From an uncultured Chloroflexia bacterium (lineage in GTDB: Bacteria > Chloroflexota > Limnocylindria > Limnocylindrales > CSP1-4), in NCBI GenBank assembly GCA_963713975.1, contig OY970218.1, forward strand, positions 3,264,001 to 3,328,000: 64,000 nucleotides of DNA. Direction: 5' to 3'. Below, one piece after another: positions 8,623-17,225 of this stretch. The position numbers were made by a program, and so were the translations under genes. Numbering within the stretch: the first letter of the stretch is position 1; each line of letters opens with the position of its first letter. The notes under the pieces were generated by a model. It saw only the letters and a list, made by a program, of their open reading frames with translations, ran no database searches and was not told the origin of the DNA.

Positions 8623-9096
8623 TCAGCTTCCGGGCTGGCCCCACCCGGGTGGCGGCGGGGGCGTCCCGACGCGCTCGGTTCCGTGGCCCGGATCGGCGTA
8701 CCCCGGGGAGCCGTACGGCGACGGGTAGCCCGGGGCCTGGAGTCCCGTACCCGGGTAGCCCGGCCCACCCGGGTACGGTCCCTCGACGTCCACGTGCACC
8801 CGGATCCCGCCGACCCGGCCGGCAGCGAAGTTGTAGAGCGCACACAGGATCGCGGTCATGACCCAGCCGACCGCTCCGTAGAACAGCAGCCCGAGCCCTC
8901 CGACGAGAATGATGCCCAGCAGGCCGGCGCCAAGGCCCGCCGCACTCCCCGAACCGGAGCCGGTCGAGGCCAAGCCCGCGATCGCTACCAGGAGCAGCAC
9001 GGGGATCATGAACACCAGCACGATCACCGCGTAGAGCACGGCGACCACATTCGCTGTCCGGACGACGTCGAACCGCCGGATCGTGACCCTGTTCAA
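8623..9096 (-). CDS. Small membrane protein, DUF3566-like, with Pro/Gly/Tyr-rich tail
   Basis: TTG start after GGAGG; two hydrophobic helices; LYNFAAGRVGGIRV motif. Confidence 0.65.
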   Translation of the reverse strand: MNRVTIRRFDVVRTANVVAVLYAVIVLVFMIPVLLLVAIAGLASTGSGSGSAAGLGAGLLGIILVGGLGLLFYGAVGWVMTAILCALYNFAAGRVGGIRVHVDVEGPYPGGPGYPGTGLQAPGYPSPYGSPGYADPGHGTERVGTPPPPPGWGQPGS

Positions 9097-9236
9097 CTTC
9101 GGTGCCTCCAGTCGCAGCAGGTATCGGTGACCCCGTCGTGAGGTCGCCCAACAGCACGCCAAGCGTACCTTCAAGAGAGCCGGCCCCAGCCCCCCGGTTC
9201 CCGCGGTCGCGACGCCCCACTTGTGCCGGAATCGAA

Positions 9237-9262
9237 GAGCCCGGGCCTCACGGCCCGGGCTC
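9237..9262 (-). terminator. Hairpin terminator downstream of groEL
   Basis: GAGCCCGGGCC-4 nt-GGCCCGGGCTC perfect 11-bp stem 24 nt after the groEL stop; weak U tail. Confidence 0.7.
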
Positions 9263-9286
9263 CTTGCGTGGTGCGTTGCGACGGAC

Positions 9287-11292
<2,006 letters not shown>

Positions 11293-11496
11293 GGTTCGTT
11301 CCTCCTGTGGCGGCCGGGCACGGCCGCCGGTGGCCTGGTTGGTGGTCCCGGACGACTGGGGCAGGCTGCCTGCAGTCGTCCGTCGATCCTCCTGTCGAGT
11401 GCCTCACCATCGGCCGCGACTCGGGGACCGTTGCCGCGCCGGTCGGCGCTTGCCGAACATCCCGGCCGGGCCCTGCGAGATCGCGTCACGTTTGAT

Positions 11497-11523
11497 TTGG
11501 CACTCTCACGTTGAGAGTGCCAA
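11497..11523. promoter_or_regulatory. CIRCE element (HrcA operator)
   Basis: TTGGCACTC-N9-GAGTGCCAA perfect inverted repeat, matching consensus TTAGCACTC-N9-GAGTGCTAA, upstream of groES. Confidence 0.93.
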
Positions 11524-11524
11524 C

Positions 11525-11554
11525 AAACTACCGGAGGCACCGTCCCGTTGTCAA
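11525..11554 (-). promoter_or_regulatory. Housekeeping-sigma promoter of groESL
   Basis: TTGACA (11554-11549), 18 nt, TAGTTT (11530-11525), directly abutting CIRCE. Confidence 0.75.
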
Positions 11555-11575
11555 CCAGCGATCCGAATGTCGTAG

Positions 11576-11951
11576 GCATCCCAGCGTCTGTGCTGGCCTG
11601 ACCGGAACGGGCCGAGCCCCATCGGCCGGCTGCATGAGCTGGTTCCAGAGCGGGGTGTCTGGGTCGTGGCCAGACGTGAAGGGGCCGCTGGCCGCTGCCC
11701 GGGCACGACCTCTGCGTGGCCGCTCCCCGAACGGGTGAACGGTGCGCTTGTGTCCGATCTCGCTCTGCGGATGAGCGGGACCGGGTCCGGTCCAGAGGGT
11801 CCCAGGCCGCAGTCCACCCACCGGGAACGTGGGATCGCACATCACCGCACCGTTCGCTCTCCCGGTGGATGACGGTCGCCGACGGCCGCCGACGGCACGG
11901 GGTCGCGGCCCTGCCCGTCACCGGCCTGAGCCAGCGCAGACGATGGGATGC
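11576..11951. ncRNA. Candidate large structured non-coding RNA, family unrecognised
   Basis: 22-nt ends complementary at 20/22 positions; several internal helices; two possible pseudoknots; no credible ORF. Confidence 0.5.
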
Positions 11952-11967
11952 TTCCCTGATTGTCCTC

Positions 11968-12807
11968 TCAGGGGCGCGGCAGCGACCGCGGGAACGTGGC
12001 GTCGTAGGCGGCGACCAGGGCATCGCCCAGCTCAGGCTCCCCCATCCCACGCCGCTCGGCGACCCAGCGCGCGGTGATGGCGACGAACTCGGGAGCGTTG
12101 CGACCGCGCGGGGCACCCGGTGGCGAGAGGAACGGCGCGTCCGTCTCGACCAGCAGGCGGGCGGCGGGAACCAGGGGCACCACGTCGGCGGATGCCTCCT
12201 CGCCGCGCCGGAAGACGAGGCCGCCGAATGCGATCGCGAGCCCCATCGACAGCATGGTCTCCGCGTAGTCGACGGGTCCCGAGAAGCTGTGGACCACGGC
12301 CGGCGGGCGATCGCCGAACACGTCGCGGGCGGCCACGTCGTCGAACCCCGCCGCCCTGAGCTCCGCGACGAGGGCATCCTGGGCGTCACGCTCGCCGGCT
12401 CGCGAGCGGCAGTGCAGGATGGCCGGCTTCCCGGTCGCGAGCGCCAGGCCCAGGTTGCGGCGCAGGTTGTCCAGCTGTGCCTCCCACGGCGAGAACATCC
12501 GGTCCGAGTCCAGCCCCGTCTCCCCGATCGCGACTACGCGGTCGTCGCGCGCCCAGGCCTCGATCCGTGTCCAGCCGGCCTCGTCCACCTTTGCCGCATC
12601 GTGCGGGTGGATGCCAACCGCCGCGTCGAGCCACGGCCTGTCCGCCACCACCTCCAGCGCCCGCTCCGAGGAACGGACGTTCCAGCCGGGGACGAGGATC
12701 CGCTCGAGACCGGCCGTTCGGGCTGCGCCGAGTACGTCGTCGAGGTCGTCGTCGAAGCGGTCAGCGTTGAGGTGGCCGTGCGAGTCGACGAGTCGCCCGG
12801 GCGTCAT
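11968..12807 (-). CDS. tatD: TatD-family metal-dependent hydrolase/DNase
   Basis: DSHGH, GIHPH, AIGETGLD, LHCR, HSFSG, LVETDAP. Confidence 0.93.
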   Translation of the reverse strand: MTPGRLVDSHGHLNADRFDDDLDDVLGAARTAGLERILVPGWNVRSSERALEVVADRPWLDAAVGIHPHDAAKVDEAGWTRIEAWARDDRVVAIGETGLDSDRMFSPWEAQLDNLRRNLGLALATGKPAILHCRSRAGERDAQDALVAELRAAGFDDVAARDVFGDRPPAVVHSFSGPVDYAETMLSMGLAIAFGGLVFRRGEEASADVVPLVPAARLLVETDAPFLSPPGAPRGRNAPEFVAITARWVAERRGMGEPELGDALVAAYDATFPRSLPRP

Positions 12808-12835
12808 CCGCCCGCGTGCCGTGATGGGGCGGACA

Positions 12836-13285
12836 CTATGCCCCCTCGAGGGCACGGCGGATCTGGTCGATGTGGTCCCACCGGTGCGCCGTTCGATCCA
12901 CCCAGTTCGGACCGTCCGCGGCGCGGGCGCAGGCCACCTGCTCGTCCGTGAGGCCGGCGATATGGGTATCGATGGCCGCCGCAGCGCCGAGGCAGAGCGT
13001 CACGGCCGGCACGGGCGGGAGTGCACGCCACGTGGCCTCGAGCGCCTCATTGCTGCGCCCGGTCACCTCGTCCGTAGCCGGCGGCGGGCATACCCGGCCG
13101 TTGGCGGCCGCGTGCCGCCAGCGGGCGAGGTGGAAGCCGTCCCAGTAGGCGAGATGCGCGAGCCCCATGGCCACCGTCCACTCCTCGCCCATGTCGGTCG
13201 CGAGATCTGCGTCCGAGAGGGTCGCGACCAGGTCGGCCAAGGCCGCCGTCGCATCGACGTTGGCGACCTCGAAGTCGCGGTTCAT
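12836..13285 (-). CDS. DinB-like (maleylpyruvate isomerase N-terminal type) protein
   Basis: WTVAMGLAHLAYWD and HRWDH; ATGA overlap with the metG stop. Confidence 0.7.
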   Translation of the reverse strand: MNRDFEVANVDATAALADLVATLSDADLATDMGEEWTVAMGLAHLAYWDGFHLARWRHAAANGRVCPPPATDEVTGRSNEALEATWRALPPVPAVTLCLGAAAAIDTHIAGLTDEQVACARAADGPNWVDRTAHRWDHIDQIRRALEGA

Positions 13286-14925
13286 GCCCCCGTGTCCCCG
13301 GACGCCTCGACCTCGATCCGAGGGAACAGCGGCGTCGGCGTCCCGATCACGCGACCCGCCTCCGGAGCCGCGCCCCACGCGAGGTGCTCGAGCACGTCGG
13401 GGCCGCCGTTGCCGTCGGGGCCGTAGGCCCAGCCGTAGCCAAGCTGCTCGAGGATTCGAGGGGCCGCGGAGGGCATGAACGGCGCCACCGCGAGACCCAC
13501 CAGCCGGCACGCCTCGACGAGGTCACCCAGGACCGCCCCGAGCCGCTCCGCCGAAGCCTCGTCGCCGGCCTTTGCCTGCTTGTTGAGCGTCCACGGCTGC
13601 TCGGCATCGACGGTCTTGTTGGCACCGCCCACGAACTCCCACAACTCGGCCAGCGCGTCGTGCAACAGGTAGCCGTCGATTCGTTCGCGGAACTGGTGCA
13701 GCGTGTCTGCCCAGCCCTCGGCGAGGGGCGAGTCCCCGGCCGCTCGCGGTGTCGGCCGCTCTCCGCCCAGATACCGGTTCACCATCGACACCGTGCGGTT
13801 GACGAGGTTGCCGAAGTCGTTCGCGAGGTCCGCGTTGTAGCGGCGGACGAACGAATCCCATGAGACGTCGGTGTCCTTGTCGAACGCCACCTCGCGGAGG
13901 GTCACGTAGCGAGCGCCATCGGCGCCGAAGGCGGCCACGACGGCGTGCGGGTCGAGGAAGTTGCCCCGGCTCTTGCTCATCCGTTCGCCCTGGACCAGGA
14001 GCCAGCCATGCACCCAGACGTGATCCGGGGCATCGATGCCCGCCGACCACAGCATCGCGGGCCAGTAGATCGTGTGGAACCGCGCGATGTCCTTGCCGAT
14101 GACGTGGAGGTCTGCCGGCCACCACTTCTGGAACAGCTCCAGGTCGTCCGGGTAGCCGGCGCCCGTGATGTAGTTGATCAACGCGTCGTACCAGACGTAG
14201 ATCGTGCCCGCGCTCGGGTCCCAGGTGCCGTCGGGGAGCTCCGACGAGGTGCCATCGTCGCGGATCGGGAACGGGATGCCCCAGGTCGCGCCCGCACGGC
14301 TGATCGAGAAGTCCTCGAGGCCCTGGCGGATGAAGCCCAGCATCTCGTTGCGCCGGTAGTCCGGCTGGACGAAGTGCGGGTTCGCCTCGTAGTAGTCCAG
14401 CAGTCGCTGCTGGTAGGCCGACAAGCGGAAGAACCAGTTGCGCTCGGACAGCCACTGGAGCGGCACGCCTGGGTGGTTGGGGCACTGCATGCCCGTCGCC
14501 GTCTCGTGCAGGTCCGACGGGGCCTTGAAGCCCTCGGACGGGCAGTACCAGCCGTCGTAGCTGCCGAGGTAGATGTCGCCGTTGTCGTAGGCGCGGCGGA
14601 CCATCTCCTGTGCGGACCGGTAGTGATCCGGGTCCGTGGTCCGGATGAACCGGTCCGGGCTGATCAGCAGCGCGTCCTCGGCCGCCTTGAACAGGCCGAC
14701 CTTCTCGTCCACGAACTCGCGCGGCGTCTGGCCTGCCGCCTCGGCCGACTGCGCGATGTTGACGCTGTGCTCGTCCGTGCCCGTCAGAAACCGGGTGTCG
14801 TCGCCCTGCATCCGGTGCCAGCGCGCGATGACATCGGCGCCGATGACCTCGTACACGGTGTGCAGGCCGGGCGCGTTGTTCGCATAGGCGATGGCGGTGG
14901 TCAGGTAGAAACGGCGGTCGGACAT
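13282..14925 (-). CDS. metG: Methionyl-tRNA synthetase, short form without C-terminal tRNA-binding domain
   Basis: [44 protein letters not shown]. Confidence 0.95.
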
Positions 14926-14981
14926 GGCCGCTCGATGGTAGCAGCGCGTCGGCCCACGACGGCGGGGTGTTGGGCCCGCGC

Positions 14982-17225
14982 TCAGTGCCGGAAGTGGCGG
15001 GTCCCGGTCACCACCATCGCGGCCCCGGCGTCCTCGACCAGGGCCAGCACCTCGGCATCACGCATCGAGCCGCCGGGCTGGATGATGGCGGTCACGCCGG
15101 CATCGAGCAGGACCTTCGGCCCGTCGGCGAACGGGAAGAAGGCGTCCGATGCGGCGACGGCACCGCTCGCTCCAGACTCGCCCTGAAACTGGCGCGCCTT
15201 CTCCACCGCGCCGCGGCAAGCATCCACGCGGCTGACCTGGCCGGAGCCGAGACCCACCAGCATCCCATCACGCACGAGCAGGATCGCGTTCGAGACGACG
15301 CCCCGGCACAGGCGCCAGGCGAGGTCCATGTCGCGCCGCTCGGCCTCGGTGGGCTGGCGGGTCGTCGTGCAGGACCATCCGGCCGTGTCGTCGGGGAGGG
15401 TGTCCGGAGCCGTGACCAGCACGCCACCACCCGCGGTCCGGAACGAACCGAGCGGATCGGCGGTCGCGAGGTGCGCACCGGACCCCAGCGACGTATCGAC
15501 GACGAGGCGCAGGTTCGGCTTGGTCGCGAGCACCTCGCGGGCACCCTCGTCGAACCCGGGCGCGACAATGACCTCGAGGAAGATCGAGACGAGGCGCTCG
15601 GCCAGGGCCCGGTCCACGGTCCCGGTGATCGCCACGACGCCGCCAAAGGCCGACACGGGATCGCCGGCCAGCGCCGCCTCCCAGGCCCCGAGCAGGGTTG
15701 ATCGTTCTGCGGCGCCGCACGGGTTGGTGTGCTTCATGACCACGACCGCCGGGCCGCGCATGAGGCGGGCGAGGGCCGCCGCGGCGGAGGCGTCCAGCAC
15801 GTTGTTGTACGAGAGGGCCTTGCCCTGCAGCGCGGGGCCTCCACCGGCGAACGGACCCTCGGCGGGGCGAGGCTCTCGGTCCGTCCGACGATAGCGGGCG
15901 GCGGGCTGGTGGGGGTTCTCGCCGTAGCGGAGGGTGTCCACCTTCTCCATCGAGATGGTGAGCACAGGCGGGTACGGATCCTCCGCGCCGGGCAGGCCGG
16001 GCTCGGGCGGCAGCGCCACCCCGGCGTCGGCCATCCGGCCCGGCAGCTCGGCCGCGATCCGCGCGTCGTAGGCCGCCGTGTGCCGGAACGCCTCCACCGC
16101 GAGGGCGGACCGGAGGCCCAGCGGCAGCTCACCATGCTCTTCGAGCGCCGCCAGGACGGCGTCGTACCGCGCGGGCGAGGTGACGATGGCGACGCTGGCG
16201 TGGTTCTTGGCCGCGGCGCGCACCATCGACGGCCCGCCGATGTCGATCTCCTCGACCAGGTCGTCGAACGAGAGCCCGGGCCGCCGGGCCGCCTCCGCGA
16301 ACGGGTAGAGGTTGACGACGACGAGGTCGAACGGGGCGATGCCGGCGGCGAGGAGCGCCTCGCGGTGATCCGCGCGTCGGCGGTCCGCCAGGAGGCCGCC
16401 GTGGACCCGCGGGTGGAGCGTCTTGATCCGGCCGTCGAGCATCTCGGGGAAGCCAGTCACCGCGGCCACGTCCGTGACCGGGAGGCCCACCTCGCGCAGC
16501 GCCATGGCCGTGCCGCCGGTGGACACCAGCTCCCAGCCACGCGCCACCAGCCCGCGCCCGAGGTCCGCCAGCCCGGACTTGTCGCTCACCGAGAGCAGGG
16601 CACGACGTGGGACCGGCATCCGAGCGTCCGCGACGGCCGTGTCAAAGGTCGCGCGGCGCGCGCCATCGGCAACGATGAGCGACCCGGACAGCAACTCCGC
16701 GACAGCCGCCGGCAGCAGGCGGTGCTCCACCGGGTGGATCCTCGCGAGAAGCGACTCCTCGGTGTCGCCGGGGAGGACGGGCACGGCCTCCTGGGCCACG
16801 ATCGGCCCACCATCGAGCGTCGCGTCCACGATGTGCACGGTGACGCCCGTGACGGCCACCCCGGCCGCGAGCGCGTCGCGCGCTCCGTGCAGTCCCGGGA
16901 ACGACGGCAGCAGCGACGGGTGCACGTTGAGGATCCGCCCGGCGAACGATGCGAGCACCGCGGGACCGACGAGCCGCAAATACCCCGCGAGCACGACGAC
17001 GTCGAGCGCCTCCGCGACCAGGGTCTCCGCCAGGACCGCGTCGTCACCACCGGGAACCAGGACCGTGTCGATCCCCTGCTCCGCCGCCCAGTCCATGCCG
17101 GGGCACGCGCGGTCCGCGAACACGAGGACGACCTCGCCGCCCAGCACGCCACGCCCGGCCGCGGCGACGAGCGCCCGCAGGTTGGACCCGCTGCCCGAGA
17201 CTCCGACCGCGGTCCGTCCGCTCAC
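14982..17225 (-). CDS. purH: Fused GAR transformylase (PurN) + AICAR transformylase/IMP cyclohydrolase (PurH)
   Basis: N-terminal [21 protein letters not shown] (PurN), then [43 protein letters not shown] (PurH) in one frame. Confidence 0.95.

Follow-up and report, generated by a model that had tools for sequence, protein, structure and literature searches.

TnGBS, ISLre2 and part of the ISKra4 group are mobile elements that, according to the main text of Guerillot et al. (2014, PMC3942029), insert 15–17 bp upstream of sigma-A −35 boxes and leave direct repeats of 8–9 bp. The same paper links promoter targeting to a signature motif of the transposase that falls between its domains N1 and N2 (figure 8). 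Insertion orientation is described there as being set by the asymmetry between the two inverted repeats, and the groups differ in the side that meets the promoter, which is the right end in p-MULT 3 (ISLre2) and both sides in those ISKra4-group (p-MULT 4) ISs that have near-perfect inverted repeats (PMC3942029, main text). The word MITE has no occurrence in that main text, a count to which supplementary tables S1 and S2 of ISKra4-group elements and junctions do not belong, and a literature search for MITEs of this IS family returned nothing specific among the matches listed. Bacterial MITEs in general (e.g. MITEAba12) are short, non-coding and intergenic, carry inverted repeats homologous to those of an IS, are flanked by a target duplication and have strong predicted hairpin folding. 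Large regulatory RNAs of the 6S and Ms1 type measure a few hundred nucleotides and have long end-to-end pairing.

In the present study we describe an element that bears a likeness to all three, located between tatD and groES in a 64,000-nt stretch of an uncultured Chloroflexia bacterium (the window). Positions 11572–11955 are very probably the non-coding shell of a prokaryotic Mutator-like (UPF0236, ISKra4/ISLre2-like) IS, and from its sequence the element appears to be a non-autonomous deletion derivative of a 1.41-kb IS with a second dispersed repeat nested inside. With the ISKra4-group, ISLre2 and TnGBS elements the family shares terminal inverted repeats, 9-bp duplications, a UPF0236-type DDE transposase (in full-length relatives) and a fixed insertion distance of 17 bp upstream of a sigma-A-type −35 (PMC3942029, main text). 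Unlike ISKra4 and ISLre2 elements, the window copy lacks a transposase and that of its relatives scores below the NCBIfam cut-offs; and in contrast to p-MULT 3 and p-MULT 4, promoters stand beside the left end only. It differs from bacterial MITEs in being a single two-ended copy with a unique interior and another repeat nested inside, and possibly it was never mobile in its short form. Unlike 6S and Ms1-type RNAs, it has neither an Rfam match nor conservation at its locus, and it does have transposon termini and a target duplication. The features of the locus are as follows.

9287–10915, minus strand: groEL (Pfam Cpn60, 2e-75)
10984–11292, minus strand: groES (Pfam Cpn10, 1.2e-33)
11497–11523, unstranded: operator-like palindrome in the groES leader, TTGGCACTC-N9-GAGTGCCAA, read in the sequence
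11525–11554, minus strand: sigma-A-type promoter of groES, −35 TTGACA, 18-nt spacer, −10 TAGTTT
11563–11571, unstranded: left 9-bp target duplication, CCGAATGTC, 7/9 against the right copy
11572–11625, plus strand: IS left end, 83% over 54 nt to positions 1–54 of a 1413-bp IS (L009)
11624–11659, plus strand: remnant of C-terminal transposase codons (MSWF..GVS), 83% over 36 nt to IS positions 1246–1281
11660–11720, plus strand: tentatively, a diverged IS 3' region, with weak, gapped protein similarity to the transposase C-terminus and no DNA match
11721–11876, unstranded: nested palindromic intergenic repeat with arms ...TGAACGGTGCG / CGCACCGTTC..., holding the helices first read as pseudoknots
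11877–11905, plus strand: IS-lineage 3' segment, 11876–11901 matching C1:3588446–3588471 of the same genome at 88%
11906–11955, plus strand: IS right end, 79% over 53 nt to IS positions 1361–1413
11956–11964, unstranded: right target duplication, CTGATTGTC, containing GACAAT and 3 nt from the tatD stop codon
11968–12855, minus strand: tatD-family gene (Pfam TatD_DNase, 5.5e-53)

The groES promoter scores 6/6 at its −35 (the reverse complement of 11549–11554) and 3/3 against TANNNT at its −10 (the reverse complement of 11525–11530), and the −35 is conserved in an alignment of relatives. The palindrome at 11497–11523 is invariant across a four-genome alignment and is presumably the CIRCE operator, or a CIRCE-like one.

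A first-pass annotation had proposed as its main reading that positions 11576–11951 encode a large RNA in its own right, some 375 nt long and either 6S/Ms1-like or of a new class; such an RNA would be transcribed from a promoter of its own. The pairings that it described are there to be read: the ends (11576–11597 and 11930–11951) are complementary at 20 of 22 positions, the helix 11815–11826/11860–11871 is paired at 11 of 12, GAACGGTGCG (11737–11746) and CGCACCGTTC (11846–11855) are perfectly complementary, and both the hairpin GTCTGG/CCAGAC and the pair GTCGTG/CACGAC were found. Complementarity of the ends runs 4 nt further on each side (GTAG.../...TTCC), which gives an element of 384 bp at 11572–11955 whose true termini, GTAAGCATCCC... 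on the left and ...GGGATGCTTCC on the right, lie 4 bases outside the limits first drawn. Folded as RNA, the 376-nt stretch reaches an MFE of −225 kcal/mol on the plus strand (z −5.91) and −216.6 on the minus strand (z −5.32). None of 100 dinucleotide shuffles was as good on either strand, so the folding exceeds chance.

These strong z-scores would favour an RNA, as would the lack of a credible ORF within the element, which an ORF check upheld. The nearly equal z on the two strands, however, points to palindromy at the level of DNA, and a sister MITE from another genome, with an unrelated interior, folds with a z of −6.08, so a structural signal of this size is generic to such elements. Nor does folding keep the pairing proposed as a pseudoknot: the MFE structure nests 11737–11746/11846–11855 as an ordinary helix and leaves the 11815/11860 helix unused. 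The apparent pseudoknots are alternative pairings among the repeated palindromic sub-motifs and the arms of the nested repeat.

The proposed RNA promoter fares little better. The −10-like GACAAT just beyond the right end does exist (it is the reverse complement of 11959–11964), but it falls inside the right target duplication and a consensus scan finds no promoter-like site there. That scan, run over 11250–12100, returned no promoter and no terminator site; both absences count against an independent RNA, yet the scan is uninformative because it missed the groES promoter as well. An Rfam 15 covariance-model scan (E ≤ 1), with 6S, RNase P, tmRNA and SRP among its models, gave no match inside 11572–11955. 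Four weak Rfam matches in 9000–15000 all lay outside the element and below gathering scores, and were rejected as chance.

Comparison of the tatD–groES spacer across the genus weighs heavily against an RNA gene. A query from upstream of groES had matches in 65 of 70 genus genomes and gave at least 30 loci; a strict promoter pattern oriented 17 of the 30 loci listed, and 12 of these, that of the window's own genome included, had tatD within the locus. In the window, about 413 nt separate the −35 from the tatD stop codon. Among the matches listed, 6 of the 11 relatives with a measurable spacer have an empty site of 5–57 nt (G013 44 nt, G015 24 nt, G012 31 nt, G051 28 nt, G024 57 nt, G052 5 nt), and these include the closest relative, G013, with 90% flank identity. 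In an alignment with G013, G015 and G012 the flanks continue across a clean gap at the position of the element, which is therefore a lineage-specific insertion. The spacer measures 276 nt in G007 and 805–1049 nt in four other relatives; among the matches listed, G079 alone of these five shows similarity to the element, and it does so through the same IS family with a different interior. The element is thus not conserved at the syntenic locus across the genus, as one would have liked to see for an RNA gene. The 276-nt spacer of G007 (L036, G007:C9) is itself GC-rich, has a very stable predicted fold (−175.5 kcal/mol) and resembles neither the element nor any of the fetched loci. The empty sites strongly disfavour the proposed ncRNA, and together with the lack of an Rfam match and with ends that are homologous to IS termini and flanked by a target duplication, they make it scarcely credible. 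As the paired ends are transposon inverted repeats, they provide no evidence of a new RNA.

The parent of the element was found through its ends, in a search that covered 24 same-genus and 16 same-order genomes. Left- and right-end sequences are paired about 1.41 kb apart at two places in G015 and at one in G013, and these intact ISs (L009 and L024 in G015, L012 in G013) are 1409–1413 bp long, have the same termini as the window element and encode a 447-aa protein, the two G015 copies having identical transposases. Their inverted repeats are asymmetric (left ...CCCAACGTCTG, right ...CCCTTCTTCTG), and in both G015 copies a promoter-like TTGACG-N17/18-TANNNT stands 17 bp from the left end. The 447-aa protein of these full-length relatives matches Pfam UPF0236 (PF06782) at 8.5e-21 (74.6 bits, cut-off 24.3). 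Its best NCBIfam model is ISKra4 (5.6e-43; 147.6 bits, below the curated cut-off of 205), and it also matches ISLre2 (3.8e-38; 131.8 bits, below the curated cut-off of 200). An exact-sequence cluster look-up found the protein absent from the collection, and among plasmids a tblastn search with the transposase returned a single weak match, in Nostoc, that carries no annotation.

Against this parent, the window element aligns to IS positions 1–54, 1246–1281 and 1361–1413 alone, so about 1.19 kb, comprising most of the transposase gene, is missing. The left end consists of the left inverted repeat, the transposase 5' leader and its first codons, with the start codon lost, and is also 91% identical to G004:C467 and, over 34 nt, 97% identical to G018:C10. 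The remnant at 11624–11659 has a weak tblastn match to transposase residues 406–442. The right end comprises the last transposase codons and the right inverted repeat, and over 43 nt shares 88% identity with its counterpart in a 238-bp element of G011. About 90 nt of the interior (11660–11720 and 11877–11905) cannot be aligned as DNA to the sampled full-length ISs. Of coding sequence, the element thus retains remnants of first and last codons and no capacity to encode a transposase. Elsewhere in the same genome, tblastn of the transposase found no intact copy and a single 30-aa fragment (C1:1725559–1725648), so no autonomous copy remains.

The position of the element relative to groES follows the rule of the promoter-targeting families. 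Exactly 17 bp separate its left end, 11572, from the groES −35 (TTGACA) downstream. We examined 34 distinct element ends in the fetched loci for matches of at least 5/6 to TTGACA at offsets 0–44. There were nine such hexamers, of which eight stood at an offset of exactly 17, all at left ends (that of the window and seven others), and the ninth at offset 14; right ends had none over the same offsets. The hexamer is followed by TANNNT at a spacing of 17–18 nt in half of the two-ended copies (6/12). In G079, a 265-bp MITE (L041, G079:C4, 1828–2092) lies upstream of groES at the same 17-bp distance from the −35. The 9 bp duplicated at its flanks, GGCCGACGA, match perfectly; its interior is unrelated to that of the window element, which makes it an independent insertion at the same promoter. 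Locus L041 also has an extra, ORF-sized stretch of about 600 nt between the MITE and tatD.

The flanks of 12 two-ended copies were scored over 9 nt for target duplications. Perfect duplications (9/9) were seen in five, namely two of the full-length ISs, two of the G079 short elements and the 238-bp G011 element, and the third full-length IS has 8/9. The window duplication, CCGAATGTC/CTGATTGTC, is 7/9 and in the same register as the 9/9 family members; a match of 7/9 or better is expected by chance in about 0.4% of cases, by our own binomial estimate. The remaining five copies score 6/9, 5/9, 4/9, 4/9 and 2/9. The terminus motif, with at most one mismatch, has 53 matches in 20 of the 70 genus genomes, against 5 for a reversed control pattern.

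Three occurrences of the family's ends are found in the window's own genome, where the whole element is single-copy and its terminal 22-mer recurs at C1:1725472 and C1:3588424. The second relic (C1:1725468–1725648; L002, about 1497–1677) has 50 nt of left end at 86% and, beyond a deletion, a transposase fragment of 30 aa (residues 122–151); a TTGACG hexamer stands 14 nt outside its end. In the third (C1:3588420–3588474; L003, about 1501–1555), a 26-nt left end abuts a match to 11876–11901, and the right inverted repeat is not recognisable. Because 11876–11901 recurs immediately after this left-end copy (C1:3588420–3588471), the segment counts as part of the IS lineage, as opposed to the nested repeat.

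The first-pass annotation had held a MITE-like element in reserve as an alternative. Terminal inverted repeats, a degenerate 9-bp duplication, homology to IS ends and the empty site all support that idea; the many dispersed copies that it had associated with a MITE do not exist here, the genome holding one two-ended copy and two fragments. Short two-ended derivatives do occur in five other genomes, with only their termini in common with the window element: four copies of 261–266 bp with 95–99% identity in G079, and elements of 238 bp in G011, 273 bp in G057, 410 bp in G051 and 442 bp in G018. The G079 short element is a true amplified MITE. That the window element likewise transposed to its site as a short element, and was not a full-length IS deleted in place, is possible but unlikely. 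Such movement is what its sister elements have done, to judge from the amplification in G079, where two of the four copies have perfect duplications, and from the 9/9 duplication of the G011 copy; yet the deletion junction and interior of the window element are unique among the nine short elements compared, and the two other relics in its own genome are differently built. Its single-copy status, together with this unique junction and interior, speaks for an IS gutted in place more than for a mobilised MITE.

Both the choice between these routes and the order of events are ones that we infer. A transposase of the family would have recognised both terminal inverted repeats of the full-length IS and integrated it 17 bp upstream of a sigma-A-type −35, with the left end on the promoter side and 9 bp of target duplicated. 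The target would have been the groES promoter, at a time when the spacer beyond the tatD stop codon measured about 20 nt. Internal deletion of IS positions 55–1245 may then have left both ends in place and the element non-autonomous, and a palindromic intergenic repeat of a second, unrelated kind would have come to sit inside the shell. All parts would have decayed afterwards, with the family transposase lost from the genome. The long-range helices are the inverted repeats of these two elements, DNA features for a transposase and not an evolved RNA fold.

A relic of transposon origin could still have been co-opted, its RNA or DNA hairpins now acting in cis. It may serve as a structured tatD 3' UTR or as a terminator that shields groES transcription initiation at its promoter from read-through out of tatD, or the changed region upstream of the −35 may alter groES expression. 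What makes the idea attractive is that 384 bp of very stable structure has been inserted between a tatD stop codon and a groES −35 that are some 20–50 nt apart in relatives, and that an independent sister MITE has landed at the same 17-bp position in G079. This shared position, though, is fully explained by the target preference of the transposase, as seen in the test of element ends and in the main text of PMC3942029. No U-tract terminator came up in the consensus scan, decay of the element shows in its inverted repeats (20/22) and its duplication (7/9), and the nested repeat, when folded in isolation, does not exceed chance as DNA (z −0.63) and exceeds it weakly as RNA (z −2.03). We consider co-option improbable, and a secondary role in cis is required by none of the present findings. 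It is also conceivable, if rather doubtful, that promoter-targeting MITEs, by landing repeatedly at this 17-bp distance upstream of a groES −35, influence expression of the heat-shock operon.

The case for a decayed IS shell matters first as a corrected annotation, in which the inverted repeats of a transposon fully account for a very convincing structured-RNA signal (paired ends, apparent pseudoknots and a z of about −6), and ncRNA screens of GC-rich genomes can filter similar cases. More modestly, it also provides an ISKra4-like family, with its MITEs, whose insertion 17 bp upstream of the −35 is strictly oriented, which extends the main-text account of Guerillot et al. 2014 (PMC3942029) and fits the idea set out there that asymmetry of the inverted repeats sets orientation. 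Insertions of the family can further act as in-genome markers of sigma-A-type promoters in a poorly studied genus.

The repeat nested at 11721–11876 belongs to a dispersed family of its own. BLAST with 11720–11881 found a match in one of 69 other genus genomes (G007:C8:132594–132755, 70% over 162 nt) and by itself missed the family, which was revealed by a covariance model, R1, built from the two copies. The model has matches in 10 of the 70 genus genomes, usually on both strands, with about seven sites in G007 and four in G012. In the alignment, family members have arms ...CGCTCGCCCGGCG..TGAACGGTGCG with their complement, and internal GCTCGCC-N-GGCGAGC hairpins; tandem repeats of 19–26 nt flank many copies, and 18 of 21 copies do not overlap a coding-like ORF. 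Double changes occur at 9 of 44 consensus pairs in the alignment of the two closest copies. With two sequences of a palindromic repeat, such changes do not separate selection on an RNA from co-evolution of inverted repeats. The copies in G007 (L072, C8, 1501–1670) and G015 (L073, C8, 1501–1668) sit at orthologous positions, flanked on one side by an enolase-superfamily-like gene and on the other by a DAHP synthase gene, both named from our reading of their translations. Because a copy has been kept upstream of the DAHP synthase gene in two species, the family might be more than merely selfish and represent undescribed intergenic structured elements of the genus, possibly functional as cis-regulatory or protein-binding sites; we hold this to be rather doubtful. 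At the G007 site (L072), 19-nt units form a tandem array (1640–1816) behind the repeat, and a hairpin-plus-T-run lies near 1957–1985, ahead of the DAHP synthase gene.
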